Below, one piece after another: positions 1 to 28,131 of a DNA stretch of 64,000 nucleotides; positions within the stretch are counted from its first letter, which is position 1, and each line of letters opens with the position of its first letter. Origin of the DNA: Bacteroidota bacterium (lineage in GTDB: Bacteria; Bacteroidota; Bacteroidia; Sphingobacteriales; Sphingobacteriaceae). The stretch is from the NCBI GenBank assembly GCA_048498695.1, contig JBEHXM010000001.1, positions 19,940-83,939 of the forward strand. The letters are read 5' to 3'. The notes under the pieces are model-generated. The model was given only the letters and a program-made list of their open reading frames with translations, was not told the DNA's origin and did no database searches. A program made the translations under genes and the position numbers.

Positions 1-2321
1 CTTACCGTAAGCAGGGTGATCAGCATTGCTCCCGTACATGCTGCGAGGAATATCCATAGCGAAATATCAGTGTGATACTTATAGTTCTTTAACCATCCCG
101 ACAGAAAATACCATGAAACTGGTGTAGCAATTATACAGGATATCACCACCAGTTTCACAAAATCTTTTGACAGCATACCCCACAGGTTGAATACCGAAGC
201 GCCAAGCACCTTTCTTACACCTATTTCCTTGGTCCGCTGTTCGGCCACAAATGAGGCCAGTCCGAATAAACCCAGCGACGAAATGAATATGGCGATAAAA
301 GCCAGTATCGATGCCAATTTGCCTATGCGTTCCTCATCCGAGAATTTTTTGGCATACTCATCATCGGTAAACTGGTAATCGAACGGACTGCCAGGGTTAA
401 ATTTTTTGAAGACTCCGGCTATTTTAGCTAATGCCGGTGTTAACTGTGCGCCTGGTTTTATTTTAATCGTAATCAGGTTTGCCCAGTTATAGTCCATCAT
501 AAAAATGGTTGGCTGAACCGGCATATAGGGCGACTGCATCACCATATTATCGATCACACCAACAACGGTAAAAGTTCTTTTATTAAAGCGAATGATCTTC
601 CCGATCGGGTCTTTAAACCCAATCAGTTGCACCGCACTTTGGTTCAATATCATGCCGCTGCTATCAGATTTGAAACTTTTTGAAAAATCGCGTCCCTGGC
701 GAATATGCCAGCCTATGGTTTTGCCGAAGTCGTGCGTAACCGCAATGGTACCGAAAAGAGGGTTAGTTGAGGGGTCTTTACCATCCCAATCATATCCGAT
801 GCTATTGCTGAAAACACCCGTGGTCGGGCTGGACGACTGGGCCATATTTTCAACTACACCGGTGTTCAGCAGATCATTGCGGATGGCGTCATAATGGCCA
901 TATAGGTCTGGTGTGCTCATCGGCACAGTGATCAATCCCTGCCGGGTATAGCCAACCGGCCGGTTTTTGGCATATTGTATCTGCTTGAATACGATGATGG
1001 TACCAATAATAATGGTTATCGATATAGCAAACTGCAGCACTACGAGTATTTCCCGGGGCAGTGAAGCCAATCGGCCGGCCTTAAAGGTGCCTTTAAGTAC
1101 TTTAACCGGGTTGAACCCTGACAGGTAAAATGCAGGGTAGCTGCCCGAGACAAAACCTGTAAACAGGGTAAACACGATAACAAGAATCCAGAACACGGGG
1201 TTACCCCATGGAATGGACATCGATTTATCGGCTATGTTATTGAAGAATGGCAGCGATAATAGCACGATCAATATGGCAAGCACTAATGCAAGTGCGGCCA
1301 TCAATATCGACTCGCTCAGGAACTGCGCGATCAGTTGTTTCCTCATCGAGCCTATCGCCTTGCGGATGCCCACCTCTTTTGCGCGTTTCTCGGACCGTGC
1401 AGTACTCAGGTTCATGAAATTGATACAGGCCAGCAGCAATACAAACACTCCGATAATACCGAAAAGCCACACATACTGAATACGCCCGCCCTTGATCTTC
1501 CCGTTCTCAAAATCACTATACAGCCGCCACTTGTCCATAGGGTGCAGCAGCAGGTGTTCGTTTCCCTCTTCCTTCTTTACATATTTTTGGGTGATCAGTT
1601 CGATTTTGGCGGAGGTTTTGGCCATATCCACATTATCGTTCATCTGCACAAATATCTGGAAGCTGTGATTGTCCCACTGCGTTGAGGCCCTTTTGAACCA
1701 GTCTTCAGTGGTCATATATTTATCCCACGACATCAGGACATAAGTATCATTAAAGCTCGAATTCCTGGCTATATCATCAAATACACCGGCTACCTTAAGC
1801 GCATATTTATTGTTGACACGGACAGTTTTGCCGATAGGATTAACATCACCGAAAAGAGCCTTTGCGGCATTTTGACTCAGCATCATCGACGAAGGATCAC
1901 TAAGTGCATTAATATTTCCGTCGACCATATGAAGGCCCAGCATCTTTGGAAAGTCGGGCTGTACCCACATACCCGTCTTGATCAGTTTCTTTTCGCCTGA
2001 GCCAAGGATGAATCCGAAGTTCCAGGAGGTAAGCGTTACATATTTAAAATCCGAGGTGTATTTATTGTGCAGCTCGGCGCCAAGCGGGATAGCCATTGCT
2101 TGCCCGGTGCCGGTCTCGTTGTTAAAGGTTTGGGTGATCATCACCTGCGCTATCTTATCGTGATTGGCATGGGAATAATTAAACGTAAGTTCGTCATACA
2201 TCCAGAAACCGATAAGCATGGCTACCGCCATACCCAATGCCAGCCCTAATACATTAATAGACGAATAAACCTTGCTCTTGAGCAGATTACGCCAGGCGAT
2301 CTTGAAGTAATTTTTAAGCAT
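1..2321 (-). CDS. ABC transporter permease (FtsX/MacB-like), 3' end runs off the window
   Basis: ATG at 2321 gives MLKNYFKIAWRNLLKSKVYSSINVLGLALGMAVAMLIGFW, typical of Bacteroidetes FtsX-type permeases; the frame at the left edge reads AMLITLLTV. Translated by hand at both ends only; not in the ORF track. Confidence 0.85.
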   Translation of the reverse strand, partial: MLKNYFKIAWRNLLKSKVYSSINVLGLALGMAVAMLIGFWMYDELTFNYSHANHDKIAQVMITQTFNNETGTGQAMAIPLGAELHNKYTSDFKYVTLTSWNFGFILGSGEKKLIKTGMWVQPDFPKMLGLHMVDGNINALSDPSSMMLSQNAAKALFGDVNPIGKTVRVNNKYALKVAGVFDDIARNSSFNDTYVLMSWDKYMTTEDWFKRASTQWDNHSFQIFVQMNDNVDMAKTSAKIELITQKYVKKEEGNEHLLLHPMDKWRLYSDFENGKIKGGRIQYVWLFGIIGVFVLLLACINFMNLSTARSEKRAKEVGIRKAIGSMRKQLIAQFLSESILMAALALVLAILIVLLSLPFFNNIADKSMSIPWGNPVFWILVIVFTLFTGFVSGSYPAFYLSGFNPVKVLKGTFKAGRLASLPREILVVLQFAISITIIIGTIIVFKQIQYAKNRPVGYTRQGLITVPMSTPDLYGHYDAIRNDLLNTGVVENMAQSSSPTTGVFSNSIGYDWDGKDPSTNPLFGTIAVTHDFGKTIGWHIRQGRDFSKSFKSDSSGMILNQSAVQLIGFKDPIGKIIRFNKRTFTVVGVIDNMVMQSPYMPVQPTIFMMDYNWANLITIKIKPGAQLTPALAKIAGVFKKFNPGSPFDYQFTDDEYAKKFSDEERIGKLASILAFIAIFISSLGLFGLASFVAEQRTKEIGVRKVLGASVFNLWGMLSKDFVKLVVISCIIATPVSWYFLSGWLKNYKYHTDISLWIFLAACTGAMLITLLTV

Positions 2322-12715: not shown

Positions 12716-12947
12716 AACGTTGAATTTATTTTTAAGATTAACGTAAAATACCCGACTGTGTTTTATGTTGAATTATGAAGAGTTGAACTTATTTAAATTA
12801 TTCTATAATAAAAAAAGACACCTACTATTCATTATCAATATTTTTGATATGTTAATCCGATTGCGAATACAAGACGTTCGCAACTGAGAGTCTAAAATAT
12901 TGGTTATGCTCCCAAATAGAATTTCAATTCCGAACTGGGTCTTGATC

Positions 12948-12979
12948 AAAAAAGCCACTTACTGGTTATGTAAGTGGCT
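12948..12979 (-). terminator. Intrinsic terminator downstream of tRNA 3' fragment copy 1
   Basis: AGCCACTTAC/GTAAGTGGCT 10-bp stem with a U-run on the minus strand. Confidence 0.75.
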
Positions 12980-12988
12980 AATTATAGG

Positions 12989-13033
12989 GTGGAGAATATC
13001 GGAGTCGAACCGATGACCTCTTACATGCCATAC
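12989..13033 (-). repeat. tRNA-Ala(GGC) 3'-half direct repeat, copy 1 (att-like)
   Basis: Minus strand gtATGGCATGTAAGAGGTCATCGGTTCGACTCCGATATTCTCCAC: anticodon loop, T-arm GGTTCGA, acceptor 3' strand ATTCTCC-A; 44/45 identical to copy 2; no 5' half. Confidence 0.9.
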
Positions 13034-13184
13034 CCGGCTTAGTAAATTAAAAACAGGTAAAAATTCATTCAAATAGCTATCAATCAGATTTTTGCATGAA
13101 AAAGCACGCAGGGGAAGAATCTTCTTAACCGGACATTTTGCGGATAAAATGGGAACAGTAGAAGCTTCTTTTTTATTTGACTCG

Positions 13185-13805
13185 TCAAAGTATAATTATG
13201 TTTCCGAAAAATTCCTTCCGGTGAAAATCAGGTTTTTCAGAATTTATATTAGCCCAGCTCAGGAAATGGGGGTCCGGCAATTTTTCACCGCATGTAGTAA
13301 AGTTACCCCTGCAACTAAGACCGCTAAAGGATTTGTATTTGTGGAAAATAAATACATTGATCTCCAACAGTACAGTAAGCTCCCAGCATATTTTCCGTTC
13401 GGCATTTACGTTATTTAAGGTGATGGATATCTTGTCGGCGATGGTATTTACTACTTCATCTGGCAATGGATTTCTATTGGTGCGCCCAAGCCCGAACGCC
13501 GCCTTGACAGATCCCAGACAGTTGAATTCCAGGTTGTAATAATGATCATCTCCCGGGAAGGCAAAAAAGAATTCAACGCAATTGTCAAAGTGAACAGAGC
13601 CATTATTTGCCCGTGTTTTTACTCTTAGAAATGATTCCTCAATCCTGAACTTAAGAAACAGTACGGTGCCCGTATGACCCATTGTAAACCGGGCGACACA
13701 GTCAGAAGATCCGCTTCCCCACGGGTCGTTTGAAATATCGTAATAGGTTAATTTCTGATCGGCTTCGTCAATAGATGAAAGGGAGGGAACATTGATGCTC
13801 TGCAT
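13185..13805 (-). CDS. Carbohydrate-binding family 9-like (CBM9/DOMON-like) protein
   Basis: DNCVEFF, YYNLEFNCLG, NFTTCGE and W...KPDFH motifs; start chosen at MQSINV. Confidence 0.75.
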   Translation of the reverse strand: MQSINVPSLSSIDEADQKLTYYDISNDPWGSGSSDCVARFTMGHTGTVLFLKFRIEESFLRVKTRANNGSVHFDNCVEFFFAFPGDDHYYNLEFNCLGSVKAAFGLGRTNRNPLPDEVVNTIADKISITLNNVNAERKICWELTVLLEINVFIFHKYKSFSGLSCRGNFTTCGEKLPDPHFLSWANINSEKPDFHRKEFFGNIIIL

Positions 13806-13842
13806 TAGTGCTGTTCGTGGATTGCTTGACAAGGGCTGGGGT

Positions 13843-14601
13843 TCAAATGATATAACTCTCCTGATCAACAAAAAGAATGGCGTTTTTGTGCGCTCTGAGT
13901 ATGGTTGATGGATAGCGCTCAGATACTGCCTCTGACAAGGTATGGTCAATAGCCCGGGCCTTTAATTTACCGGGGACCATACAAAAAATATAGGGAGCCT
14001 GCATCAGGGCAGGGATAGTCAGCGTTAATGCATAATGGGGTACATCGTTTAGGCTCTCAAAACATCCGTCATTTACCTGTTGTTGCCTGCAATCTTCGTC
14101 CAGTGTTACCTTTTTTATAGTCTCAGGGTCTGAGAAATTTGCGACCGGCGGGTCATTGAACGCCAGGTGCGTGTTTTCTCCGATACCCATGCAAACAATA
14201 TCCGGCGGAAATTTTTGAAGCAGGTTTTTATAACGGATGCATTCATGTTCAACATCTGCCGTGTGACCATTGATCAGGTTAACCGACTTAAAAGGTACAT
14301 GACTGAATATCTTCTCATTCAAGAAGTTTCCAAAACTCTGAGGAGCGTCATCAGGCAGGCCCAGGTATTCATCCATATGGAATGCATTGATACGGCCCCA
14401 TGGAATATTTACATCCGTTAACAGGCATCCTAAAAATTCGTTTTGTGAGGGTGCTGCAGCAAAAATGATATTGACATCCGCCTTTTCTGAAGCAATCTGT
14501 TTAATTCTTTCAGCTGTTCTTTTTGCAGCATAATCGCCCAATGCCTTACGGTCTTTCACCACAAATACTTCCAGTTCGTCTATTTTGAAATTATGATCCA
14601 T
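13843..14601 (-). CDS. nagB: Glucosamine/galactosamine-6-phosphate deaminase family
   Basis: FHMDEY, CMGIGENTHLAFNDPP, ALTLTIP motifs; start at 14601 preferred over 14637. Confidence 0.85.
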   Translation of the reverse strand: MDHNFKIDELEVFVVKDRKALGDYAAKRTAERIKQIASEKADVNIIFAAAPSQNEFLGCLLTDVNIPWGRINAFHMDEYLGLPDDAPQSFGNFLNEKIFSHVPFKSVNLINGHTADVEHECIRYKNLLQKFPPDIVCMGIGENTHLAFNDPPVANFSDPETIKKVTLDEDCRQQQVNDGCFESLNDVPHYALTLTIPALMQAPYIFCMVPGKLKARAIDHTLSEAVSERYPSTILRAHKNAILFVDQESYII

Positions 14602-15814
14602 GATTTGCCTGGGATAGATTTTTAGCCATTTCTCCAAATATAATACGCCCCCCTATAATGGTTTGATGAATATTGATCTGCTCATCGAAAAGCACCAGGT
14701 CAGCATCTTTTCCAACTGCAATAGCGCCTTTGTTTTCAGATATGCCCATAATAGCTGCGGGTGTGCCCGTCATCATTTTAACGGCATCAATAAGGGGTAC
14801 ACCCGCCATGTTGATCATGTTCCTTACCAGGCGGTCGGCGGTCGCAACGCTTCCTGCAAACGCAGTTCTATCCGGAAGTTTTGCAACACCATCTTCTATG
14901 ATAACCTTTAGCCCGTTTTTTAAATCTCCCAGTACGCTTTCACCGGGAGGCATACCGGCGCCTCTCATTGCATCGGTAACCAGTGCGATCCTGTCCGGCC
15001 CTTTTAGTTTGTAAACCAATTTTAATAAGGCTTCCGGGAGGTGAACACCGTCAGCGATGATCTCAACGGTCATGTCGTCCATGAGAAAAGCACTTTCTAC
15101 AACACCGGCGTAACGATAGGCATTTTTCCTTGTAACTGTCGACGTACAAGAATAAAGATGAGTGACATGTGTGAATCCATGTTCAAAAGCATCCTTAACC
15201 TCTTCATAAATGGCTTCGGTATGCGCGATAGATGGCAGTACACCTTTTGAAGACATATATTTCCCGAATTCGATGGCCCCGGGCAGTTCAGGCGCTGCAC
15301 TCCATCTTTTTATAAAAGAGTTGTTCGCCAATATCTCCCGGTATTCCTGCGGGTCAGGATTTCTTATATAGCGAGGGTCCTGCGCACCTCTTTGGTTCAT
15401 TGCAAAATACGGCCCTTCAATATGCAAGCCTATAAATTGCGAACCGCGCTTATTGATACCATTTGCTTTTTTATAGGTTTCAAGGGTTTGAAGCAGATCA
15501 TCCTTTTCACAGCTCAGAGTGGTTGGTGTAATCGCGGTTGTGCCGTAGCGTGCGTGCAGTTCGGCTATGGCCAGAAAGCCATCCACACTGTTGTCCATAA
15601 AATCATGTCCGCCGCCTCCGTGTAAATGAATGTCGATAAAGCCGGGCGATAGATATTTCCCTTCGGCGTTAAGAACGTACTCCGTGTCATATTCGATATC
15701 ACCGGAAGAAATCAACTTTATTTTACCGTCCTCAATAACCAGGCTTCCATTCCCGATAATTTTATCAGGGGTTATAATTTTTGCGTTATATATTTTTAGG
15801 CTTAAACTATCCAT
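14591..15814 (-). CDS. nagA: N-acetylglucosamine-6-phosphate deacetylase
   Basis: PGFIDIHLHGGGG, HIEGPY, THLYS, DGVH, GSVAT motifs. Confidence 0.92.
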   Translation of the reverse strand: MDSLSLKIYNAKIITPDKIIGNGSLVIEDGKIKLISSGDIEYDTEYVLNAEGKYLSPGFIDIHLHGGGGHDFMDNSVDGFLAIAELHARYGTTAITPTTLSCEKDDLLQTLETYKKANGINKRGSQFIGLHIEGPYFAMNQRGAQDPRYIRNPDPQEYREILANNSFIKRWSAAPELPGAIEFGKYMSSKGVLPSIAHTEAIYEEVKDAFEHGFTHVTHLYSCTSTVTRKNAYRYAGVVESAFLMDDMTVEIIADGVHLPEALLKLVYKLKGPDRIALVTDAMRGAGMPPGESVLGDLKNGLKVIIEDGVAKLPDRTAFAGSVATADRLVRNMINMAGVPLIDAVKMMTGTPAAIMGISENKGAIAVGKDADLVLFDEQINIHQTIIGGRIIFGEMAKNLSQANHGS

Positions 15815-17421
15815 TATAAATTCGTTGAGGTTCTGGCGGGTCTTACAGCCATAATTTGGTTATACAAATCGTTTAGCTTTTCATTTCTCAAGGCATTCTC
15901 TGCAGCAATTTCTCCGTCTTTCAGGAAAGCACCATTTAGCGCCGCAAACGACTTGTTCAGCTCCAGGGATTTCCTTTTAAGGCTTTCTGCTTGTGGAACA
16001 AGTTTACCGGCAGATTCCAGGTTGAAATTATTGGCATTTACACGCTGTTCTAAAAGCAAAACTTTGAGATAGAACAACCTGATATCAGTCATCAATATGT
16101 AATGGCTATACTCATCTGTGTTTTTGGTCGGCTTTAGATTTTTGAAAAGGGATAAAGCTTCTGAGGTACTGTCAGCCAGGCTTTCCAGTGACAATTTGCT
16201 CTTCGACCGAACCTGGCCGTTTATAACCGGGTATGGTGTCATGAACAGTGCCCGCTGAAATTTTTCCGCAGCGGGCCTGGTAAGGCCATATTGTTTCAAA
16301 CAATAATCATTTATAAATTTCCTGGCATCTAATGGCTGTTCCGTTTTCAAGGCAGCTGTATAGGCGTTGATCAATAAATTGAATCCCGACAAAGGGCAAA
16401 CGCGCCTGATAGGATAAAAGGCCAACGGGTCATTATTAGAATCAAAAACAGTACAGTAAGCGCCGGAAGTTGACCATGAGGTCATCACTATACCCTTGTA
16501 ATTGAGTTTCCGTGTCTCAGGAATAAAGTTTTTGATATTATCGAAGTGGTTTTTCCATTTGGTCAGGTAGAAATTATCCGGTTCGCTTCGCAGTGCGGGC
16601 GCGCCCCAGATTTCATAGCCGCTGTTAAGCAACTGGGTATGATCACCGAAATGGCTAAGGTCCCAGCCATAGTTCCAGTCTACAAATATGGTTTCTTTTG
16701 GAAGCAAATGTATTTTGTCAGGGTAATGCAGGGCAATATCTGCCCAAACCACCGGTTTTTTTCCCATCCCAACCACAATGTCGCAGATCATTTTAATATA
16801 ATCAAAATACAGGCCCGAAAGACCTACCTGTGCTACTTTGCGCTGACATTTCTCACAATGACCGAGTAGAAATGTTTCGTCTCCGCCAATATGAATGTAA
16901 GGTGAATCATGCGTTTCCTCTATGTCTTTCAGCAAAGCTGTAAAAAGTGTTCGGCAGCTGTCCAGCTCTACCGGGCAAACCTGTGAGAAATCTTTTTGGT
17001 CTTCTCTCAGTTTTGTGTATTTATAATGTTTAAGTATATATTCCACATGCCCGAATGTTTGCTGCAGCGGAATTACTTCCATATTGAGGGTGTGGCAATA
17101 CCGGATAAACTCCTTTATCTCACTGCGTTTATAGGCATATTGGTTGGAGATCACGGTTTCTTTTGCATACGGGTAAGCCCCTTCCCATTCCATTATCAGT
17201 GCATTTATCCCCTGCCCATGCAGTTGATAAGCCAGCTTTTTGAGGGCAGTTAACTTCATTACCTGTATTCGCAAGTCGATATGGAATGCCTTTATTTTAA
17301 ATTGATCAGGTGCCGTTGGAGAGTTATTGGCACCTTTTACATAATTTGTAAAAAGAAGGATCAATAAAGTGATGCAAACTTTGGCTGATCGTTGTACAAT
17401 CTTGTTTTTGAGTAAGGCCAT
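15814..17421 (-). CDS. GH20 family hexosaminidase (HexD/GcnA-like), secreted
   Basis: Signal peptide, FHIDLR, IPLQQTFGHVEY, catalytic HIGGDE. Confidence 0.85.
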   Translation of the reverse strand: MALLKNKIVQRSAKVCITLLILLFTNYVKGANNSPTAPDQFKIKAFHIDLRIQVMKLTALKKLAYQLHGQGINALIMEWEGAYPYAKETVISNQYAYKRSEIKEFIRYCHTLNMEVIPLQQTFGHVEYILKHYKYTKLREDQKDFSQVCPVELDSCRTLFTALLKDIEETHDSPYIHIGGDETFLLGHCEKCQRKVAQVGLSGLYFDYIKMICDIVVGMGKKPVVWADIALHYPDKIHLLPKETIFVDWNYGWDLSHFGDHTQLLNSGYEIWGAPALRSEPDNFYLTKWKNHFDNIKNFIPETRKLNYKGIVMTSWSTSGAYCTVFDSNNDPLAFYPIRRVCPLSGFNLLINAYTAALKTEQPLDARKFINDYCLKQYGLTRPAAEKFQRALFMTPYPVINGQVRSKSKLSLESLADSTSEALSLFKNLKPTKNTDEYSHYILMTDIRLFYLKVLLLEQRVNANNFNLESAGKLVPQAESLKRKSLELNKSFAALNGAFLKDGEIAAENALRNEKLNDLYNQIMAVRPARTSTNL

Positions 17422-17437
17422 ATGCTTTAATTGGTTT

Positions 17438-17455
17438 AACGTGTACGTACACGTT
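17438..17455. promoter_or_regulatory. LacI-type operator 1
   Basis: Perfect 18-bp palindrome AACGTGTACGTACACGTT between the promoter and the GH20 start. Confidence 0.8.
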
Positions 17456-17457
17456 TA

Positions 17458-17487
17458 CAAAAATATCGCTTTATTTGAATTTTCAAA
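17458..17487 (-). promoter_or_regulatory. Bacteroidetes primary-sigma promoter for the GH20-nagA-nagB-CBM9 operon
   Basis: Minus strand TTTG (-33), 18 nt, TATTTTTG (-7, TAnnTTTG). Confidence 0.7.
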
Positions 17488-17667
17488 ATATTATTATGCA
17501 TACAAAATTTAATAGCTGAATCAGCCTGATTTCAGAAGGACAGAAAAAAATATAACAATTTTCCTAATCGCTTGGAATCAGACAAAATTCTCTCTTAAAA
17601 CATCAGGTTTACTACCGCACTCCTGATCAATTCGAGCCAGCTCAGGCAGCCAAAAATTAGTAGTTGA

Positions 17668-18726
17668 TTAATTCTTGTAAGATTTATAATTCTCTTTGGT
17701 TATGATGTCGATAGGCATATAATTCACCTGCCCGACATCTTCAATTTTGAACAGGAATTTGTATAAGGTCATGATTGCCAGGTAGCCCTGCTCTCTTGGA
17801 CGCTGGCTGATGATAAAACGGATGATACCATTTTCCAGCTGAGTGATATTTTCCTCAATAAAGTCGTATCCCACCAATAATATATCCGACTTGATTTTCG
17901 AAATAACTTTAGCTACCACATGCACTCTCGAATTTGTTACAAAAAGCACCCGGGCTTTAGGTGTGGAATTGATGGCCTTAGTGATCTGCTTTTCAATGGA
18001 GTTGATGTCAGTATGATTAACGTTCAGTGAAAGGACAGTATTTAAAAGTTGCTTTTCTTCAAAGAACTTCCGGAAGCCCTGCTCTTTTCTAAACAAATGG
18101 TGATCCAGCTCTAATTGTGTAGAAATATTGATCACAAAAATATCGTCATCTTCCTTCATCATAAAGCTCACCAACTGGGCTGCCAGACGTCCGCTTTGAT
18201 AAAGGTCCGGCCCGATGTAGCTCAGGCTGTCTTCTTTTGGCAGGTCTGAGTTGATAAACACAAAGGGAATATTCAGCTCTTTTAATTTTCTTACAAAGGT
18301 GGTTGCTTCTTCAACAAATGAAGGCGCGATCAAAACTCCCTGGGGTTCAGATTTTAAGACCGAATTAGCAACCTCAACAAAGTTTTCTCTTGAGTTGAGA
18401 TCATAAAATACGTAATCCACCGCCACTGCGAACTGTCTGAGTTCCAATATGGCCTGATCAATACCCGCAAGCGGGTAGCTCCAGTAATTGGTCTCAGTTG
18501 AGCTTTTTGGAATAACTACACTGATAGTTACCGTGTCGCGCTTTGCCAGCAAGCTCGCCATTTTATTAGGGCGGTAGTCCAGTTCCGAAATGATGGCGTT
18601 AATTTTCTTCCGGGTTTCATCGGAAACACCTTTACGATTATGTATAACCCGGTCGACAGTACCTATAGAGACATTAGCCAATCTTGCTATTTCCTTTACA
18701 CCTGACTGGTCAGATTTAGTTTTCAT
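17668..18726 (-). CDS. LacI-family transcriptional regulator
   Basis: HTH VKEIARLANVSIGTVDRVIHNR and YRPN hinge; start at MKTKS preferred over 18783, which would overlap the promoter region. Confidence 0.92.
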   Translation of the reverse strand: MKTKSDQSGVKEIARLANVSIGTVDRVIHNRKGVSDETRKKINAIISELDYRPNKMASLLAKRDTVTISVVIPKSSTETNYWSYPLAGIDQAILELRQFAVAVDYVFYDLNSRENFVEVANSVLKSEPQGVLIAPSFVEEATTFVRKLKELNIPFVFINSDLPKEDSLSYIGPDLYQSGRLAAQLVSFMMKEDDDIFVINISTQLELDHHLFRKEQGFRKFFEEKQLLNTVLSLNVNHTDINSIEKQITKAINSTPKARVLFVTNSRVHVVAKVISKIKSDILLVGYDFIEENITQLENGIIRFIISQRPREQGYLAIMTLYKFLFKIEDVGQVNYMPIDIITKENYKSYKN

Positions 18727-18802
18727 ATATGCGTCAAATATACACATCATTTTCCTACCTCGTAAGTATTTGATCTTCATCACAATAATTTTACTAAATG
18801 CG

Positions 18803-18822
18803 TATCGTGTACGTACACGATA
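18803..18822. promoter_or_regulatory. LacI-type operator 2 (divergent lacI / HGSNAT-like gene)
   Basis: Perfect 20-bp palindrome TATCGTGTACGTACACGATA. Confidence 0.8.
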
Positions 18823-18864
18823 TTTGTAATTTTTCAGTATTTTGCATTAAATAAAAAACAAAAA

Positions 18865-19986
18865 ATGACTGAGCAGATTAAAAAAACCAGGTTACGTTCC
18901 CTCGATGCGTTTCGGGGGCTTACCATTGCGGCGATGATCGTCGTCAACTCACCCGGCGATTGGGAACATGTATTTCCTCCTTTGAGACATTCTGAGTGGA
19001 ATGGCTGTACGCCGACCGATCTCGTATTCCCGTGCTTCATATTTATGATGGGATTGTCCATCGTGTTTGCTTTTTCATCTAAAAGAACAGACCCGAAGCT
19101 GCATGGCGGCATCATCATGAAAGCATTCCGGCGTATGCTGATCATTGTCGGCATAGGCCTTGCGCTGCAACTTATCCATCGTTTTGACTTCTCGCAATTA
19201 AGATTCCCGGGCGTGTTGCAAAGGATCGGCGTGGTGTATTTTATTGCTACCTGTTTATATATCAAACTTCCTGCAAAGAGTCTTTACGCTATAGCCGCCA
19301 CCATCCTGGTGTTATATTATGGTGTAGTATGCCTTTTCCCACCGGCAGGGCTAAGTGCTGTAACGCCTACTGAAAACGCCAGCGCCTGGTTTGATCATTT
19401 AGTTTTGTCACCTGGCCATTTAGCAAAGTTTGCTTACACCGACCCGTGCGGGATATTGGGCACCTTTCCGGCTGTTGTTACTGCGATGATCGGCATATTC
19501 GTGGGCCTTACACTCAAAAACGACAATCTGTCTGTTGAACGAAAAACCGTCAATTTATTGATAGGCGGAAATGTCCTGATCCTGGCCGGACTGATCTTCA
19601 GCCTGGTCTTTCCGTTTAACAAGCCCTTATGGTCAAGTTCTTATGTGCTTTATGCCGGCGGTATATGCACTGTAGGCTTCGCAATTTTTTACTGGATTAT
19701 TGATGTTAAAGGTAAGTTCAGCAAATCATGGCTGTTAAGCGTACTTGGGATCAATGCTATAACTGCATATGTGCTTTCAGAATCTTTACCAGGCCTGCTG
19801 CTTAACAGGGTGAAGATAAGCGATCAGGGCAAAGGGGCCCGTGGTATGAAAATATTTGATCAGTTTGTTTTTTCAAAAGTTTTTACTCCTGAATGGTCAT
19901 CACTTTTAACTGCTATTCTTTTGCTATTGCTGATATGGGGATTGATGTATATCCTCTATAAAAAACAATGGATCATCAAGATCTAA
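18865..19986 (+). CDS. Heparan-alpha-glucosaminide N-acetyltransferase-like membrane protein (NagX/DUF5009-like)
   Basis: RLRSLDAFRGLTI, DLVFPCFIF, PGVLQRIG, DPCGILGT, PFNKPLWSSSY motifs. Confidence 0.88.
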   Translation: MTEQIKKTRLRSLDAFRGLTIAAMIVVNSPGDWEHVFPPLRHSEWNGCTPTDLVFPCFIFMMGLSIVFAFSSKRTDPKLHGGIIMKAFRRMLIIVGIGLALQLIHRFDFSQLRFPGVLQRIGVVYFIATCLYIKLPAKSLYAIAATILVLYYGVVCLFPPAGLSAVTPTENASAWFDHLVLSPGHLAKFAYTDPCGILGTFPAVVTAMIGIFVGLTLKNDNLSVERKTVNLLIGGNVLILAGLIFSLVFPFNKPLWSSSYVLYAGGICTVGFAIFYWIIDVKGKFSKSWLLSVLGINAITAYVLSESLPGLLLNRVKISDQGKGARGMKIFDQFVFSKVFTPEWSSLLTAILLLLLIWGLMYILYKKQWIIKI

Positions 19987-20011
19987 CCAGCCTCAATATC
20001 TTTCCTAAAAT

Positions 20012-20046
20012 AAAAGCGCCACTCCGGTTTTAACGGTAGTGGCGCT
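20012..20046 (-). terminator. Terminator between convergent HGSNAT-like and susD genes
   Basis: AGCGCCACT/AGTGGCGCT stem with an A-run on the left. Confidence 0.7.
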
Positions 20047-20076
20047 GGATAAACATCAATCAACTAAAAATATTAT

Positions 20077-21711
20077 TTAATAACCTGGGTTTTGGTCTAA
20101 TTTGGCGTCTTTGTTCAGGTTGATCTCCGACTGAGGGATGGGTAATAACAAGTTCTTTTCTGTAAGCCCGGTAATTTTCTGCCCGCGGCCAACTACCCGT
20201 TGAAGCAAAGTTTTAGTCCGCATCAGGGTCATACGACGATTTTCCTCGGCAATCAGCTCTCTTACCCTTTCATCCAGTATAAAATCCATTGTTATCTGGG
20301 CTGAGGTAACCTGCGCTGCATTTGCCCTTGTCCTCAGTACATTGATGGATTCGGCCGCTCCGGCTTTATTCCCCTGTTTAAATTGTGCTTCCGCTTTTAG
20401 TAAATAGGTTTCTCCCAACCTCATTATGATAAAATCCTTGATCATACTGCTACCAAATGAATCATTGGGGTCAAACTGGTCCCATTTATTGGTTTTTGGA
20501 ACAATATTACGATTGGTATCAATCCCAGGCCCTGCAACCAGTTTTCCATAATCCGGAGAAGATGGGTCGTTGTAGTAGTATTTCCGGCGTATGTTATACT
20601 TTGAATTACGCATATCATTGGGGCCATAGAGGTTTAAAACAAAATAGGTTAATGCCATCCTGCTTATTCCCCTTCCGCCTAAGCTATCGCACAATAGCAT
20701 ACCCGGCGTGTTATAATATCTGCTGCCCCATGCTCTTCTGTGCTGGGAACCTAGGAAGCGGTAACCCGGAAATTTGTCCTGGCGGTCGGGCCCGGCACCA
20801 TTGGGTACCGATGCCGGATTTTCAGTTTCTTCTACCCAGATAGCCTCGGTATTACCCTGGGTACGCCGCTGATTTCCAAAAATAAACATGTCCGAAAAAG
20901 GATCGCCCGGCTGTGAGGCATGTACACCATAACGGGCTGTTATTAATTGAAATTTACCACTGTTAATGATGGTATTGCACTCTGCTTCAGCTTCAGCGTC
21001 TTTACCTCCTATGCGTAAATAAGCTTCCGCCAATAATTGTGAGGCCATAGATTTGTTTGGAAGTGATTTAGCCTCCAGGTCATCAATTGAAGGTGCGTTT
21101 ACCTTCGCAAAATTAAGGTCAGCCACAATAAGGTCATTAATGTCCTTTATGGGTGCTCTTACAAAATTTGTTTTAGGGCCTGTTATCGGCTCAGTCACCT
21201 TAGGGACACCACCAAACAGCGTAGCAAGGTAATTATAAGCCAAAGCTCTGTAAAACATAGCCTGGGCTTTGATCTTATTTCTGAAACTGGTTCCGGCCTG
21301 TATGGATGGTTTGTCGATATTGGCAAGTACCACGTTAGAGTTGTTAATGATATTATATGCCCATTGCCATACAAAAGCAACAGAAACATCAGCCGAAGAT
21401 AACTTTTCGTAATTGGTGTAGGGGATTGACATTGGGTCCAGGTCATCCGGAGCTTTATTATAAGCCACATCAGTACCCATTTGCCATACACACAGGAAAC
21501 CCTGGTTGCCATTCTGATCTTCGTTCATTGTATTCCAAAGAGAATACTGGCTTTGCAGACCCACAATGCTGGCCTCAAACGCTAATGAATCATTCAAAGC
21601 TTCAGGCGTAAATTTTGAATAGACCTTCTCCGTAAGAAAATCCTTTTTACAGGCCGGCAACATAATAGCCGCGGCCATGATCACGATCAATATATATTTA
21701 TACTTTTTCAT
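20077..21711 (-). CDS. SusD/RagB-family lipoprotein
   Basis: Lipobox LPAC, TPR-like N-terminal region, MRLGETYLLKAEA, DERVRELIAE motifs. Confidence 0.93.
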   Translation of the reverse strand: MKKYKYILIVIMAAAIMLPACKKDFLTEKVYSKFTPEALNDSLAFEASIVGLQSQYSLWNTMNEDQNGNQGFLCVWQMGTDVAYNKAPDDLDPMSIPYTNYEKLSSADVSVAFVWQWAYNIINNSNVVLANIDKPSIQAGTSFRNKIKAQAMFYRALAYNYLATLFGGVPKVTEPITGPKTNFVRAPIKDINDLIVADLNFAKVNAPSIDDLEAKSLPNKSMASQLLAEAYLRIGGKDAEAEAECNTIINSGKFQLITARYGVHASQPGDPFSDMFIFGNQRRTQGNTEAIWVEETENPASVPNGAGPDRQDKFPGYRFLGSQHRRAWGSRYYNTPGMLLCDSLGGRGISRMALTYFVLNLYGPNDMRNSKYNIRRKYYYNDPSSPDYGKLVAGPGIDTNRNIVPKTNKWDQFDPNDSFGSSMIKDFIIMRLGETYLLKAEAQFKQGNKAGAAESINVLRTRANAAQVTSAQITMDFILDERVRELIAEENRRMTLMRTKTLLQRVVGRGQKITGLTEKNLLLPIPQSEINLNKDAKLDQNPGY

Positions 21712-21721
21712 ATCAATTGAA

Positions 21722-24700
21722 TTAGCGAAGTGTAATATTAGCGCCTAAAATAAATGAGCGCACCAACGGATAGTTATTCTGGGTATCTCCTGTTATAGCA
21801 TAACTGGCTTCCGGGTCCCATCCAACCCATTTGGTGAATGTGGCCAGGTTTCTACCGGTAATGTACAGGGAGGCTCCTCCTATTTTTAACTTTTCAGCTA
21901 ACTTCTTTGAAAAATTATAACTGAACGTCACATCTTTGATCCTGGTGAAACTAGCATCCTCAGGATAACCATATCCACGGAAGTTGACGTAGGTAAGCTT
22001 AGGCCGTAAGTTGCTTTGATTAGTCGCTGTCCAGTATCCCAAACCGGCCGGCAGATTTTCCCTTCCGCCATAGTCCACAAAATCTATTATCCGGTTATCA
22101 AGCAAAACGCCCTGCACAGTCTGAATGAATATGCTCAGGTTAAGATTCTTATAGTGGAAGGTGTTGGTGATACCACCGGTCCATTTAGGAGTGGTCTGAC
22201 CGAGGATCATTTGATCTTTACCGTCAGTAGTGATCGTCTTACTTCCATCCAGATCAGCAAACTTCAGATCGCCTGGTGTTGCTCCGGGATCCTGGTTGGC
22301 AGGATCTTCTCCTACTTTCCAAACACCAGTTTGTTTATAGTCATAAACTACATTTACCGGGTGACCAATAAACAACCTGTTTCCAATATCGTCCTTTTTA
22401 TCACCGTATAGATCGACGATCTTATTGGTATTAGCCGAATAATTTAAGCTGGTTTCCCATCTAAAATTTGTACTCTGAACATTTTGAGTTTTCAGGGTTA
22501 GCTCAAAACCGGTGTTTGATACCTTTCCGATATTTGAAACTGTTTGATTATAACCTGTAGCTGTTGGCAGCGCACGATAAAGTACCAGGTCTTTGGTGTG
22601 TGTGTTATAAGTTTCGATGGTACCGCTGATCCGGTTATTTAATATAGCAAAATCCAGGGCTATATTACTACCATAAGTGCTTTCCCATTTCAAATTTTCG
22701 TTACCCAATACATCTGCTATTACGCCGGTGGTTGGCCTGCCATTTGATGGGATGGAAATGGTTGTAAAAGAAGATATCGTTGAGTTCGGAATTACAGCCG
22801 ATTGATTGCCGGATAATCCGTAAGAGCCTCTCAGCTTTAAGTTGTTAATGAATTTTACATCATTCATAAAGCTTTCGTTACTAATATTCCAGCCAAGGGC
22901 AATGGAAGGGAAGAGACCATATTTGTTGGTATTAGAACCAAATGGCGAATAGCCATCACGGCGGGCTGTAGCGGTTATTAAATAACGGCTGTCAAAGGAG
23001 TAATTTACCCTCAGCATCTGCGATATCATATTTGTGGTAATTGCCTCAGACTGGCCGGATATTGTACTGGCTCCCTGTACCGCATTAAATAATAAAGCAT
23101 CGTTGATAAACCCGGATGCATTAATGGTTGATGCAAATTCTTTATTTTCCTGTGAACTATACAAGGCGGTCACATCAAGGTGACTTTTACCCCAGTTTTT
23201 GTCATAGGTCAATATATTTTCAATGATCCAATTTTTCCTTTCCGTATTGTCTATCTCGGCTGTTCCGCCTGCTATATCGCCTGCCAAACGGCCCTGGTAG
23301 CTTTGGGCAAGGGAAGGCAAATAAGTATACCCGGCGTTAATTCGGTATTTTAAACCCGGTAAAGGCTTTAATTCGGCATATACATTGGTGATCAAATTCT
23401 GCCGCCTGGAGTTCCTGGTGGTGATGGTACCCAGCATAGGGCTTTGCAGTGCTTCTTCTCCTTCCATCGGGAAAATAGCATAAGTTCCGTCAGGATTTTT
23501 GTACCTGCCGTAAGGGCTGATTTCTTCTGCAAGAGCAAGACTTGCCCGGCCGCCGTCATTGTTAGTGGTTGCCATGTATAAATTTACCCCTGCATTCAGG
23601 TAATCAGTAATTGTAGCGTCAATATTTGAACGAATGCTTCCGCGCTTGGTCTGGTAACCCAACAGTACTCCCTTTTCGCTGAAATAATCACCGGCAACAT
23701 AGTATTTAACATCCTTGTTGCCGCCGGAAACACTCAGGGTATGATCTTGAATAAATCCGTTTTGTGATACCTTTTTCAGCCAGTCGGTGGTGGTATTAGT
23801 TGCATAATTGGCTTGCTCATAAGCATTAGGCACAGGAAAATCATTCTCAACTCCAGCCTGCTCTTTCCAGTCTGCATATTTCTTTACATATTCTGCCGGG
23901 CCCATCGGTTTTAAAACATGCGCCATGTCTTCAAAACCCGCATAGGTACTCAGCGTAATAGCGGCCTTCCCTGTTTTCCCACGCTTGGTGGTGATCAGTA
24001 TAACCCCATTGGCACCCCTGGTACCGTAAATAGCTACCGAAGAAACATCCTTTAAAATGTCGATGGATGCAATATCAGCGGTATTAATATCACTCAATGA
24101 GCCTCCTTCGAAGGGATTGCCATCGATAACGATCAGTGGATCGGTATTGCCATTGATTGAATTGATACCCCGAACGACAATGCCAGGTGAACTTCCGGGA
24201 ATATTGTTACCATCTGTTATGGTCACACCTGCAACTGTGCCTTCAATCGCTTTCAAAACGTTACTTGTCGGAATCTCTGACAAGCGTTCTTTAGGGACGG
24301 ATGAAATAGACCCGGTAAGGTCGGACCGTTTGGATGTACCGTACCCAACTACAACTACCTCGGCAAGTGATTTATTAATCGCTGTAAGGCTGATGGTCAG
24401 TGGGCGGTTGTCGGTCGGCTTTAGGGTGACCGTTCTGTAATTGATCATGCTGACCTGGAGTGTTCCTCCGTCTGGTACATTGATTTTGAAACTACCGTCT
24501 ACATCGGTAATAGTTCCCGTTGAACTGCTTTTTACTGCTACAGTTGCGCCCCCCAGGGGAGAATTGTTGGCACTGTCGATGATTTTTCCCGTAATTAATC
24601 TTCCCTGGGCGTATGCCTGGTTAACTGGAAAAACGATCATCGATAACAGGATACAGGCGAATACATACATACCTAGCTGCAGTAGTCGTCCCGATTTTTT

Positions 24701-24724
24701 TGAGTTGAGTCGATGTTTTACCAT
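21722..24724 (-). CDS. SusC/RagA-family TonB-dependent transporter
   Basis: VVVGYGT, DILKDVSSVAIYGTRGANGVILITTK, KWESTYG, terminal GANITLR. Confidence 0.95.
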   Translation of the reverse strand: MVKHRLNSKKSGRLLQLGMYVFACILLSMIVFPVNQAYAQGRLITGKIIDSANNSPLGGATVAVKSSSTGTITDVDGSFKINVPDGGTLQVSMINYRTVTLKPTDNRPLTISLTAINKSLAEVVVVGYGTSKRSDLTGSISSVPKERLSEIPTSNVLKAIEGTVAGVTITDGNNIPGSSPGIVVRGINSINGNTDPLIVIDGNPFEGGSLSDINTADIASIDILKDVSSVAIYGTRGANGVILITTKRGKTGKAAITLSTYAGFEDMAHVLKPMGPAEYVKKYADWKEQAGVENDFPVPNAYEQANYATNTTTDWLKKVSQNGFIQDHTLSVSGGNKDVKYYVAGDYFSEKGVLLGYQTKRGSIRSNIDATITDYLNAGVNLYMATTNNDGGRASLALAEEISPYGRYKNPDGTYAIFPMEGEEALQSPMLGTITTRNSRRQNLITNVYAELKPLPGLKYRINAGYTYLPSLAQSYQGRLAGDIAGGTAEIDNTERKNWIIENILTYDKNWGKSHLDVTALYSSQENKEFASTINASGFINDALLFNAVQGASTISGQSEAITTNMISQMLRVNYSFDSRYLITATARRDGYSPFGSNTNKYGLFPSIALGWNISNESFMNDVKFINNLKLRGSYGLSGNQSAVIPNSTISSFTTISIPSNGRPTTGVIADVLGNENLKWESTYGSNIALDFAILNNRISGTIETYNTHTKDLVLYRALPTATGYNQTVSNIGKVSNTGFELTLKTQNVQSTNFRWETSLNYSANTNKIVDLYGDKKDDIGNRLFIGHPVNVVYDYKQTGVWKVGEDPANQDPGATPGDLKFADLDGSKTITTDGKDQMILGQTTPKWTGGITNTFHYKNLNLSIFIQTVQGVLLDNRIIDFVDYGGRENLPAGLGYWTATNQSNLRPKLTYVNFRGYGYPEDASFTRIKDVTFSYNFSKKLAEKLKIGGASLYITGRNLATFTKWVGWDPEASYAITGDTQNNYPLVRSFILGANITLR

Positions 24725-24765
24725 AATTGATTAGTAAGCGTTTGGTTGATAATTGGTTTTTGATT

Positions 24766-24783
24766 AACGTTAACGTACACGTT
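24766..24783. promoter_or_regulatory. LacI-type operator 3 (susC)
   Basis: AACGTTAACGTACACGTT, 2 mismatches to operator 1. Confidence 0.75.
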
Positions 24784-24787
24784 ATAG

Positions 24788-24817
24788 CAAAATTATATAT
24801 TTATCGATAACTTCAAA
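24788..24817 (-). promoter_or_regulatory. Bacteroidetes primary-sigma promoter for susCD
   Basis: Minus strand TTTG, 18 nt, TAATTTTG; same geometry as the GH20 promoter. Confidence 0.7.
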
Positions 24818-24898
24818 ATATTTTTGAAATAAAAAATGCTTGAAAATCAACTTAATGGCGTGTAACCTCATCATTTTAATTAAAAAAACATATTTTTA

Positions 24899-24916
24899 AA
24901 CGTTAACGTACACGTA
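24899..24916. promoter_or_regulatory. LacI-type operator 4 (MFS transporter)
   Basis: AACGTTAACGTACACGTA. Confidence 0.7.
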
Positions 24917-25035
24917 AAATAAGTGAATTTCACTATCTTACACCGGATTTGGCAAACTTGCTTAGTCTGAATCGGGGTAGATGTATTTGTGTAAACCGCT
25001 TTTATATTTTTATAAAAAACTTAATCAGGTGCTAA

Positions 25036-26337
25036 ATGAATCTGGAGTCTTCTAACAGAACTGTTCCATTACTTACCATTTGCGTGGTGTTTTTCGTCCT
25101 CGGTTTTGCAACATGGATCAATGCCATGCTTATTCCTTTCTTCAAAGTAGCCTGCCAACTGACGAATTTTGAATCCTATTTCGTGACGTTCGCATTTTAC
25201 ATTTCTTACCTGGTGATTGCTCTTCCTGCGTCATTCTTATTAAAGCGCACAGGTTTTAAAATCGGGATCATGATCGGGCTTGCAGCTATGTCTGCAGGAG
25301 CACTCGTCTTTATTCCTGCAGCCGTCATGCGGTCATACCCCATATTCTTGCTGGGCTTATTTATTATAGGCACAGGGCTGGCTATTTTGCAAACCGCAGC
25401 CAACCCTTATGTGACCATGCTGGGAAGTCCGGAGCGGGCTGCGCAAAGGATCAGCATAATGGGGATTTGTAACAAGACGGCCGGGATAATGGCACCTTTA
25501 ATACTTGCGGCACTGATCATTAAGCCTAATGACAGCGAATTGTTCAAATCTATCCCACATTTGGATGACGTTCAGAGGGAAATCGTTTTGAATGGTATTA
25601 TACAGCGGGTTATATATCCCTATGCTGTAGTGGCTATCGTCCTCGCGGCTCTGAGCGCGTTGATTTATTTTTCGCCCCTGCCGGAAATTGACGACACAGC
25701 CGCACCGGAACGTTCAGAAAATGGTCAGGCACGGGACACCATATTTCAATACCCACACCTTATTTTAGGGGCAATTGCAATTTTCTTTCATGTCGGTTCG
25801 CAGATCATAGCCATCGACACTATTATTCCATATGCACAAAGTCTCGGTTACTCTATTTCTGCAGCAAAGGCATTTCCTTCGTTTACATTAATGGCGACTA
25901 TAATCGGCTACCTTATGGGCATCATTTTTATCCCAAAGGGGGTATCACAAAATCAGGCATTACAAATTTGTACGGTGCTGGGGCTACTCCTGTCAATTAT
26001 GGTGAACCTCACCGCAAGTAAAATTAATTTGTTCGGCACCGCCATCGAACTTCCCCTGGTATTCTTAATTAGTCTCGGCTTTGCTAACTCAATGATATGG
26101 GCCGGTATCTGGCCTCTTGCGCTTAAAGGCCTGGGAAAACATTTGAAGGTGGGTGCATCCATACTGATACTCGGTCTTTGTGGCAATGCCCTCCTTCCTT
26201 TACTTTATGGGTACATTGCCGATAAATGCAGTTTAAAAGTAGGGTATTTGATCCTGCTTCCCTGCTATTGTTATTTGATTTTCTATGCATTTTACGGCCA
26301 TAAGATTAAGGCATCGCCATTGCGCAGCAATCAATAA
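25036..26337 (+). CDS. MFS sugar transporter (FucP/GluP/NagP family)
   Basis: LQTAANPYVTMLG, FHVGSQI, GFANSMIWAGIWP motifs; multiple TM helices. Confidence 0.9.
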   Translation: MNLESSNRTVPLLTICVVFFVLGFATWINAMLIPFFKVACQLTNFESYFVTFAFYISYLVIALPASFLLKRTGFKIGIMIGLAAMSAGALVFIPAAVMRSYPIFLLGLFIIGTGLAILQTAANPYVTMLGSPERAAQRISIMGICNKTAGIMAPLILAALIIKPNDSELFKSIPHLDDVQREIVLNGIIQRVIYPYAVVAIVLAALSALIYFSPLPEIDDTAAPERSENGQARDTIFQYPHLILGAIAIFFHVGSQIIAIDTIIPYAQSLGYSISAAKAFPSFTLMATIIGYLMGIIFIPKGVSQNQALQICTVLGLLLSIMVNLTASKINLFGTAIELPLVFLISLGFANSMIWAGIWPLALKGLGKHLKVGASILILGLCGNALLPLLYGYIADKCSLKVGYLILLPCYCYLIFYAFYGHKIKASPLRSNQ

Positions 26338-26492
26338 TACGTGCCGACGACTAAGCCAAAAGAGCGTTATCTAGAAATTTAGTTTGAATTAATTTTCGTG
26401 AACCGGCAGTTTAGACAAAACAGGATTGGAGGCATTCCTGGTACCTAAAAAATGTAAATGCCAACTAAGACAAGCTTAAACTTTATCAGGAC

Positions 26493-26524
26493 AAAAAAGG
26501 CTTTACAAAAATTTGCAAAGCCTT
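26493..26524 (-). terminator. Intrinsic terminator downstream of tRNA 3' fragment copy 2
   Basis: AAGGCTTT/AAAGCCTT stem with an A-run on the left. Confidence 0.65.
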
Positions 26525-26534
26525 GATTGTCAAA

Positions 26535-26579
26535 GTGGAGAATATCGGAGTCGAACCGATGACCTCTTGCATGCCATAC
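26535..26579 (-). repeat. tRNA-Ala(GGC) 3'-half direct repeat, copy 2 (att-like)
   Basis: Minus strand gtATGGCATGCAAGAGGTCATCGGTTCGACTCCGATATTCTCCAC; U70 and discriminator A fit alanine identity; no 5' half. Confidence 0.9.
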
Positions 26580-26881
26580 TTTTAACTACTTTACAATTAT
26601 TTGATTTTTCTCGCCGGAATTGCTATGTATCAATTAATTAAGTAAAACTAATTGCTTGTAAATATTTTATTTCGAATCAATTAACTTTATCGGTGCTTTA
26701 TCACATGCTTGAAAAAGTCGTGCTTCTTGCATGCCGATTACTATCGCGGAACAACTAATATATCGCGTTATGAAGATATACGCCGTAAAGCCCGATGACG
26801 CGATGCTGTCGGGATGCCCTTGTTTACCTACAGAAATTCATCGCAGGGGGGAATTATGCTAAATCAATAACAGCCTGTTGC

Positions 26882-27922: not shown

Positions 27923-27942
27923 ATTTTCGAGATTTATTTCCT

Positions 27943-28007
27943 CAAAATTGCCATGAATCTGCATGAATTAAAATGACTCAGGACATGCACATAAGTGACC
28001 TTGGTCA
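27943..28007 (-). promoter_or_regulatory. Paired TGAY-N4-RTCA boxes (27974, 27996) + -7 element for adh
   Basis: TGACTCAGGACA and TGACCTTGGTCA 22 bp apart; CAATTTTG on the minus strand 23 nt from the proximal box. Confidence 0.7.
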
Positions 28008-28047
28008 AGCTCTTAATTTTAAGGTTTGCTTGCCCTGTGATCAAAAC

Positions 28048-28112: not shown

Positions 28113-28131
28113 TGGTATAAAATTAGAAATC

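Follow-up and report, generated by a model that had tools for sequence, protein, structure and literature searches.

Integrative and conjugative elements (ICEs), integrative and mobilizable elements (IMEs) and cis-mobilizable elements (CIMEs) accrete in tandem at tRNA genes, as in the ICESt1/CIME arrays of Streptococcus thermophilus and the IME_Sag2603_tRNAlys array of S. agalactiae (PMC5704250). A CIME keeps attL and attR, no longer has genes for integration and transfer, and moves in cis with a related ICE (PMC5704250). Here we analyse a 64 000-nucleotide stretch of DNA from a genome of the genus Mucilaginibacter (a 241-contig draft of ~5 Mb), hereafter ‘the window’. We conclude, with a probability of roughly 80%, that elements integrated in tandem at a single tRNA-Ala(GGC) gene form an array here, the window holding its distal two-thirds. 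Two of these putative elements, islands A and B, are delimited by two headless fragments of that gene, F1 and F2, and by the intact gene itself.

The array resembles ICESt1/CIME and IME_Sag2603_tRNAlys in that integration would have taken place in the 3′ part of the tRNA gene, which the incoming element rebuilds. As in ICESt1/CIME-type arrays, the older elements appear to have decayed, with attL and attR kept and integration and transfer genes lost, and a chimeric internal att site (here F2) lies between elements. It differs from the streptococcal arrays in its host, a soil genus of the Bacteroidota, and in its presumed crossover in the anticodon loop, because of which 43 nt plus a private terminator are duplicated. 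The cargo is also different: a polysaccharide utilization locus (PUL) in A, and in B a 66-kb respiratory and metal-related block that includes genus-conserved clusters; the mobility of A and B is putative. Accretion and decay in tandem at a tRNA gene is a known process; the host genus and the integrase/att family are new.

NBU1, NBU2 and CTnDOT-type elements are Bacteroides elements with tyrosine integrases, and NBU1 targets the 3′ end of a tRNA-Leu gene. The likeness to the system described here is one of features: a tyrosine recombinase with an N-terminal arm-binding domain, a small helix–turn–helix (HTH) excisionase-type gene beside int and, in a putative resident ICE represented by two contigs (C168 and C11), conjugation genes for a relaxase and a VirB4/TraG ATPase. 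The target differs, being the anticodon loop of tRNA-Ala(GGC), and the islands of the window are altogether without mob and int genes. Classical tRNA-linked genomic islands share with A and B the tRNA-derived direct repeats, a 3′ flank that varies among relatives and accessory metabolic cargo. In contrast to them, the integrase here is gone, there is no clear compositional signature, and two to three islands stand in series.

Throughout, G000 denotes this genome, other G-codes its relatives and C-codes contigs, C1 being the contig of the window; the segment to the left of F1 is called L. A second assembly, GCA_048497975.1, was compared throughout. The gene content of A and B was taken from Pfam scans of the main non-overlapping open reading frames (ORFs), a few of which had no Pfam match.

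Results

Two headless tRNA-Ala(GGC) halves in the window

The features on which the interpretation turns are the following.

12989–13033, minus strand: F1, headless 3′ half of tRNA-Ala(GGC) (tRNA positions 32–74) plus GT; putative distal att scar of island A
26535–26579, minus strand: F2, headless 3′ half of tRNA-Ala(GGC) plus GT; putative hybrid att site between islands B and A
12953–12979, minus strand: T1, intrinsic terminator directly 3′ of F1, AGCCACTTAC-loop-GTAAGTGGCT plus a T run
26497–26524, minus strand: T2, intrinsic terminator directly 3′ of F2

F1 and F2 form a 45-nt direct repeat with a single mismatch (G/A at 13023 versus 26569), and the first-pass annotation of the window, which had reported this repeat, proved exact in its coordinates and correct in every detail of its description. 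Because no other direct-repeat family of at least 30 nt is present in the 64-kb window, chance is excluded. The reverse complement of both fragments matches 43 nt, positions 32–74, of the only tRNA-Ala(GGC) gene of the assembly, a match that takes in the anticodon loop ATGGCAT and 3′ anticodon stem, then variable loop and T arm, and closes with the 3′ acceptor strand (including U70), A73 and a single base more. The alignment to this gene, on C27, agrees with the annotated extent, from the anticodon loop to the discriminator. The two bases past the 43-nt identity are GT in F1 and F2 and GC in the live gene, again as annotated. F2 is identical to the live gene over the 43 nt, and the mismatch in F1, which turns C40 of the anticodon stem to U, is a drift mutation. 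ARAGORN finds no tRNA in the window, so that both fragments are without a 5′ half or D arm, which had also been claimed.

The minus-strand terminator proposed to follow each repeat is there: T1 (12979–12953, 10 pairs) and T2 (26524–26497, 12 pairs) are the two best terminator-like hairpins in 12500–27200. Two additional headless copies occur in G000, at C168:4114-4158 and C9:15919-15961, and the homology of all G000 copies continues ~50 nt beyond the tRNA 3′ end, through the terminator, where it falls into two subfamilies. F1 plus T1 is 87% identical over 93 nt to the C168 fragment and its terminator, and the T1/F1 stretch is 85% identical to attL of the ICEs of G031 and G033. F2 plus T2 matches, at 89–91% identity, the terminators that follow the intact tRNA and the C9 fragment; T2 presumably came in with the attP of island A. 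A third degenerate tRNA-like fragment was not found on C1, allowing up to five mismatches per 22-mer.

The intact gene and the contiguity of the array

The single tRNA-Ala(GGC) of the whole assembly lies at C27 c[16..90] (ARAGORN). C1 extends 19.3 kb past the window and carries no tRNA there; the gene is reached via C1, C170 and C27, and stands at the C170/C27 junction. A DUF3570 protein is divided between two contigs, its N-terminal part being the last ORF of C1 (Pfam profile positions 116–235) and its C-terminal part the first ORF of C170 (positions 247–397), and the two contig ends have a 9-nt in-frame overlap. C170 terminates in the tRNA, where it overlaps C27 by 72 nt, 15 of them specific to the C170-type terminator flank. 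In the second assembly, one contig (JBEHYW010000027.1) carries the intact tRNA and is 100% identical to the whole of C170 and to the terminal 7.8 kb of C1; its 439-aa DUF3570 gene is unbroken. Together, the split ORF, the 9-nt overlap and this contig place the tRNA on the minus strand at window-equivalent positions ~92258–92332, ~28 kb right of the window end, which bears out the expectation that it would be found beyond 64000 on the minus strand. Other contigs of the second assembly span F1 (window 5730–16560) and F2 (window 17669–30622) at 99.99% identity. The contig-end overlap graph of G000 has only the links C170-C27, C1-C144, C27-C54 and C62-C66.

An integrase family and its att sites

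C168 encodes a 421-aa tyrosine integrase (Arm-DNA-bind_5, Phage_int_SAM_5 and Phage_integrase domains) that starts 200 nt from the anticodon-loop side of an identical headless fragment. DUF4099/DUF3945 genes, which are typical of Bacteroidota conjugative elements, come after it. Homologues of this integrase (68–94% identity) are found 168–212 nt from identical fragments at six of six other Mucilaginibacter loci, each in another genome and each with the headless fragment preceding the integrase. At these loci the stretch from fragment to integrase contains a pair of arm-type direct repeats (for instance, GTTTTATCACAG twice) and, just ahead of the integrase start codon, the motif TTGCATGC. More distant integrases (30–72%) adjoin fragments in G015 and G002 and in G011, G013 and G014, to which the association of fragment and integrase thus also extends. 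Apart from C168, the family stands 170–212 nt off identical fragments at no fewer than nine Mucilaginibacter loci.

All the fragments, in G000 and in at least 10 other genomes, begin at the same anticodon-loop base, and the genomes that bear them also have the intact tRNA, in direct orientation and 12–221 kb off. Arrays of an intact tRNA plus one or two fragments are present in G031, G032, G033, G011, G013, G014 and G015; the order in G031 is tRNA, 119 kb, integrase and fragment, 22 kb, second fragment. Single elements of G031, G013 and G014 have one and the same type of arm repeat on either side, past the terminator near the tRNA and ahead of the integrase near the fragment. This match marks the repeats as att-arm signatures and the structures as attL and attR. 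The attP of these elements carries the 3′ half of the tRNA plus a private terminator, with the predicted crossover in or at the anticodon loop.

The integrases beside identical fragments, on C168 and in relatives, support the view that F1 and F2 are recombination scars of tyrosine integrases acting in the anticodon loop, as the first-pass annotation had proposed. Its further suggestion, that the elements used related attP sites, holds in so far as terminators and arm-type repeats are shared; the subtypes, however, differ.

Unusual tRNA-like sequences were seen just downstream of a headless fragment in Mucilaginibacter sp. OK268 (L053:2091-2497) and M. pedocola (L055:2438-2520). They are chimeras with the acceptor and T arm of tRNA-Ala and another hairpin in place of the anticodon arm, two of which ARAGORN labels tRNA-Ile(GAT); in L055, an 18-nt hairpin lies within the anticodon loop of an otherwise tRNA-Ala-like sequence.

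The tRNA gene as an insertion hotspot

The 5′ side of the tRNA gene (a 263-aa protein, LpxB and MFS genes) is conserved in at least eight relatives, and the 3′ side is different in all of them. DNA-level synteny against 30 relatives was mostly uninformative, with identities of 65–75% and gene order little kept, and exact-match look-ups of the backbone proteins of C27 and of the left part of C1 returned none. Alignment to the close relative G004 revealed a near-empty site. Over the 20 kb that lead up to the tRNA, G004:C32 keeps the order of C27; 8.4 kb of other genes follow, and collinearity then resumes with C1:12917->373 and C144, a contig that overlaps the left end of C1 by 99 nt. The interval from tRNA to backbone is thus 8.4 kb in G004 versus ~99 kb in G000, the latter made up of B (65.7 kb), A (13.5 kb) and the 20-kb segment L.

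1–12952, and ~7 kb further left to C1:12918: segment L, variable, between F1 and the backbone shared with G004

Segment L holds genes for a MacB-like permease, a DUF6134 protein, an epimerase and an SDR, followed by an ECF sigma/FecR/STN protein, a sigma54 response regulator and a hybrid histidine kinase. An att scar was not found at its far end. The sigma54 regulator/kinase pair also occurs at G002:C86, where an att site is absent. The second assembly annotates a 50-aa gene at window 8495–8647 (L086:2766-2918). To the left of the window, C1:7915-8353 is a repeat of ~430 nt with copies of 82–91% identity on at least six other G000 contigs, also multi-copy in G018, G006 and G013; it looks like a miniature inverted-repeat transposable element or an insertion sequence fragment.

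Island A, an amino-sugar locus

Island A occupies 13034–26534 (13.5 kb).

13034–13102: truncated integrase-proximal (P) arm of A, ~70 nt that align with the P arms of integrase-bearing elements
13185–26337: cargo of A, an amino-sugar polysaccharide utilization locus (Pfam)
26478–26489: arm-type repeat AAACTTTATCAG, just beyond T2 on the P′ side of A

The P arm of A is 79–81% identical to the attR flanks of G011 and G013 for ~70 nt and then diverges; both the arm repeats and the integrase gene are missing from it. The genes are those for a CBM9-like protein, NagB, NagA, a GH20 hexosaminidase, a LacI regulator, an HGSNAT-like acyltransferase, SusD, SusC and an MFS transporter. A collinear homologous PUL is present in only 2 of 18 genus relatives (G007 and G018), at other loci, and these copies are without att sites and without an integrase. 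The AAACTTTATCAG repeat at the right end is of the same type as the repeats that flank the C9 fragment and attL of the G031 ICE.

Island B, a low-oxygen and nitrous oxide respiration block

Island B runs from 26580 to the intact tRNA (~65.7 kb).

26580–26760: integrase-proximal (P) arm of B, complete, right of F2
26683–26693: B arm repeat AACTTTATCGG, in the P arm
26694–26705: B arm repeat TGCTTTATCACA, in the P arm
26723–26741: B core-like motif CTTCTTGCATGCCGATTAC, in the P arm
26882–64000: cargo of B inside the window (Pfam)

The arm repeats and core-like motif of B are spaced as in integrase-bearing relatives, with no integrase gene after them; an alcohol dehydrogenase (ADH) gene ends at 26882. 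Inside the window, ADH, pta-ackA, a TonB receptor and MacAB are followed by a cytochrome c gene with clade II nosZ-L-D-F-Y and a ric/DUF2249/Rrf2 operon, and then by Usp, a P-type ATPase, hemA, LOG, hemH, an L,D-transpeptidase and a phosphoketolase. Beyond the window come a cbb3 oxidase (ccoI-NO-P-G-H), hemN, a 2-hydroxyacid dehydrogenase and a Crp-type response regulator with a PAS kinase, then CcmE-like, ApbE, DUF3570 and thioredoxin genes, and a metal-related module (a two-component system, cytochrome b561, VIT1, DoxX, a multicopper oxidase and ChrA), after which stand the terminator and the intact tRNA. ADH, pta-ackA and the nos part are absent from the complete genomes G013 and G018 and spread over four loci in G004.

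A second, collinear copy of the ADH-to-LOG region (ADH, pta-ackA, MacAB, nos, ric, Usp, ATPase, hemA, LOG) is carried by C4 at 67–76% nucleotide identity (C4:35633-82542; L047, L068, L069). It begins 8 kb behind a tRNA-Asp(GTC) gene, a terminator, GGTTACCT arm repeats (ATTCGGTTACCT twice behind the tRNA) and a 410-aa integrase, and the C4 block also holds a Rieske/4Fe-4S/molybdopterin oxidoreductase and a SLAC1-type channel. The 35 kb of C4 upstream of tRNA-Asp are without a paralogue in the genome. The second copy has additional pieces elsewhere (hemH on C19, hemN to the PAS kinase on C114), and the second assembly has the C4-type copy too. Homology to the second copy ends at C1:101078, ahead of the ApbE-to-ChrA module, which would fit this module being a separate remnant. 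Because the draft contains redundant fragments (C214 and C193), it is likely rather than proven that one cell carries both the C1 copy and the C4 copy. A 21-nt copy of the tRNA-Asp 3′ end at C82:19936-19956, beside a 426-aa tyrosine integrase (~20.4–21.8 kb), is a candidate for the distal att site of this tRNA-Asp island; backbone synteny with G004 gave no link between C82 and C4.

A third, partial nos set (nosL/D/F/Y-like) lies at C214:580-4414, with 77% nucleotide identity to the C1 copy; its proteins are about as close to those of G011 (84–91% identity) as the proteins of the C1 copy are (87–93%), a hint that the draft is heterogeneous in strain or species. In G011, a 28-kb B-like block (C22:94929-126200; MacAB, PAS kinase to hemN, cbb3, L,D-transpeptidase, phosphoketolase and ATPase) ends beside a tRNA-Lys/tRNA-Leu cluster, and a nos-ric cluster lies inside a 46-kb stretch without G000 homologues (C70:54800-100800). 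These two blocks may also be islands.

Islands without mobility genes, and a possible helper

PF00589 has no match on C1, C170 or C144, and tblastn for integrase remnants near F1, F2 and the C9 fragment and across the same three contigs returned none. Genes of a type IV secretion system are likewise absent from A and B in the Pfam scans. Both islands keep attL and attR: A ends in F2, with its terminator and a CTTTATCAG arm repeat, and in F1 with the ~70-nt P arm; B ends in the tRNA, with terminator and arms, and in F2 with the full P arm. Since integrase and transfer genes are gone, A and B appear to be CIME-like modules.

A candidate helper is at hand. C168 has the Int of a related, putative ICE, and C11 carries a relaxase, a VirB4/TraG ATPase, ParA and a primase. 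That the two belong to one ICE is supported by their homology to the G031 element of 119 kb, a link between contigs that are not themselves connected. An HTH_17 excisionase-like gene stands beside an identical int on public Logan contigs. The C168 integrase is absent from the second assembly. In principle, the resident ICE could act on the att sites of A and B.

Discussion

The fragments, terminators and arms and the contiguity with the tRNA are direct observations, as are the link to integrases in relatives and the near-empty site of G004, and we believe that they are best accounted for by successive integrations. An incoming attP would consist of an arm proximal to the integrase, the tRNA copied from its anticodon loop to its 3′ end, a terminator of its own and a distal arm with short direct repeats, and a tyrosine integrase would exchange strands in or at the 7-nt anticodon loop. 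The incoming tRNA copy would restore a working gene, while the previous 3′ half would be displaced, headless, to the far end of the element. Each newcomer could then reuse the rebuilt gene and shift older elements outward. On the minus strand, from right to left, this would give the order seen here: the conserved 5′ flank (fatty-acid hydroxylase, MFS, LpxB), the intact tRNA, B, F2, A, F1, the 20-kb segment and the backbone. A presumably integrated before B; this fits the sole drift mutation being in F1, the outermost fragment, and the identity of F2 with the gene. Both islands presumably once had integrases, lost by deletions that ended at the arm/integrase boundary, and would now be movable only with a helper integrase such as that of the resident ICE on C168 and C11.

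Several observations weigh against a simple array of this kind. Pfam scans and tblastn found no integrase, excisionase, relaxase or integrase pseudogene in A or B, and past mobility is therefore inferred from the att ends only. GC content is not distinctive (0.40–0.44 in A, 0.43–0.48 in B, 0.41–0.46 to the left). G004 provides the sole clean near-empty site, the more distant relatives being without synteny. Within the 241-contig draft, the headless fragments of C168 and C9 are not placed in the array. The arm repeats of B differ, those beside the tRNA being of the GTGTTACCT type and those beside F2 of the CTTTATC type, and this mismatch makes B probably a fusion of at least two elements that lost an internal att site. 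B also holds the sole cbb3 oxidase cluster of the genome plus the hemN-regulator cluster, and the cco-hemN-regulator cluster is collinear in G003, G004, G011 and G013, far from their tRNA-Ala; part of B may therefore be captured native DNA. Finally, the second assembly equals G000 through the tRNA plus 58 nt upstream and then shows only ~80% identity to C27, the drop being abrupt and within the fatty-acid hydroxylase gene (L085:1-396 versus G000 C27:91-493). This divergence could stem from recombination at the tRNA, from the co-occurrence of two lineages or from a chimeric join. The first-pass claim of at least two elements in tandem, with a second island from 26580, stands, with the amendment that B is probably composite and includes genus-conserved clusters.

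How much of this could be explained without mobile islands? Our first reading took the DNA right of F2, with its housekeeping-looking genes and no integrase, for ordinary chromosome; it was dropped in view of the C4 paralogue behind tRNA-Asp and an integrase, the C1–C170–tRNA link and the G004 synteny. A more elaborate version, in which B is largely native chromosome (cbb3, hemN, hemA/H and the nos region) trapped between att sites through gene capture during ICE accretion or excision, or through rearrangement of the array, so that only A and the att ends derive from mobile elements, would accommodate the single-copy cco genes, the collinear cluster in four relatives, the mismatched arms, the lack of mobility genes and the G011:C22 block, which holds most of the right-half genes of B. 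Yet both outer flanks of the array retain the G004 order, so B must have entered between them; its left edge is an intact integrase-proximal arm that stops exactly at the expected integrase start; the homologous C4 block likewise begins behind a tRNA plus integrase; and G013 and G018 are devoid of ADH, pta-ackA and nos, which in G004 are scattered. We therefore regard a largely native B as unlikely.

An assembly or binning artefact, with contigs mis-joined at a tRNA fragment or two Mucilaginibacter populations mixed, seems far less probable still. The fragmented draft, its estimated contamination of 3.1%, some redundancy (C214, C193 and C4 versus C1), the unlike tRNA 5′ flanks of the two assemblies and the lack of the C168 integrase in the second would be expected from it. 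The 45-nt repeat, however, is shorter than the 99-nt contig overlaps of this assembly; F1, F2, the C1/C170 join and the C170/tRNA join each lie within single contigs of the second assembly at 99.99–100% identity; the G004 synteny independently ties both outer flanks; and the redundancy between contigs amounts to only tens of kb in 5 Mb. Least credible of all is a reading of F1 and F2 as tRNA pseudogenes in decay, or as duplicates of a terminator module, with no tie to site-specific integration. That neither has an adjoining integrase in the window would suit this explanation, which is at odds with the exact start base common to the fragments of this and at least 10 other genomes, the integrase that mostly stands at a fixed distance, the arm repeats, and the pairing of fragments with an intact tRNA in direct orientation.

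We thus retain the tandem array at the tRNA gene. It places a glycan-utilization locus and a complete clade II N2O-reductase and low-oxygen package of a common soil genus in a tRNA hotspot, bounded by recombination sites, and so opens the horizontal spread of N2O-sink capacity to direct testing. More tentatively, the att ends of B, its diverged copy behind tRNA-Asp and an integrase, and the occurrence of the array beside a ~80% identical flank in the second assembly raise the possibility that B is a cis-mobilizable metabolic island that spreads N2O reduction and microaerobic capacity among Mucilaginibacter via tRNA-targeting ICEs, an idea that we consider doubtful as it stands. A further outcome is the definition of an integrase family in Mucilaginibacter whose target, the anticodon loop of tRNA-Ala(GGC), is precise and whose arm repeats are recognizable, which is useful for delimiting islands in Bacteroidota genomes.

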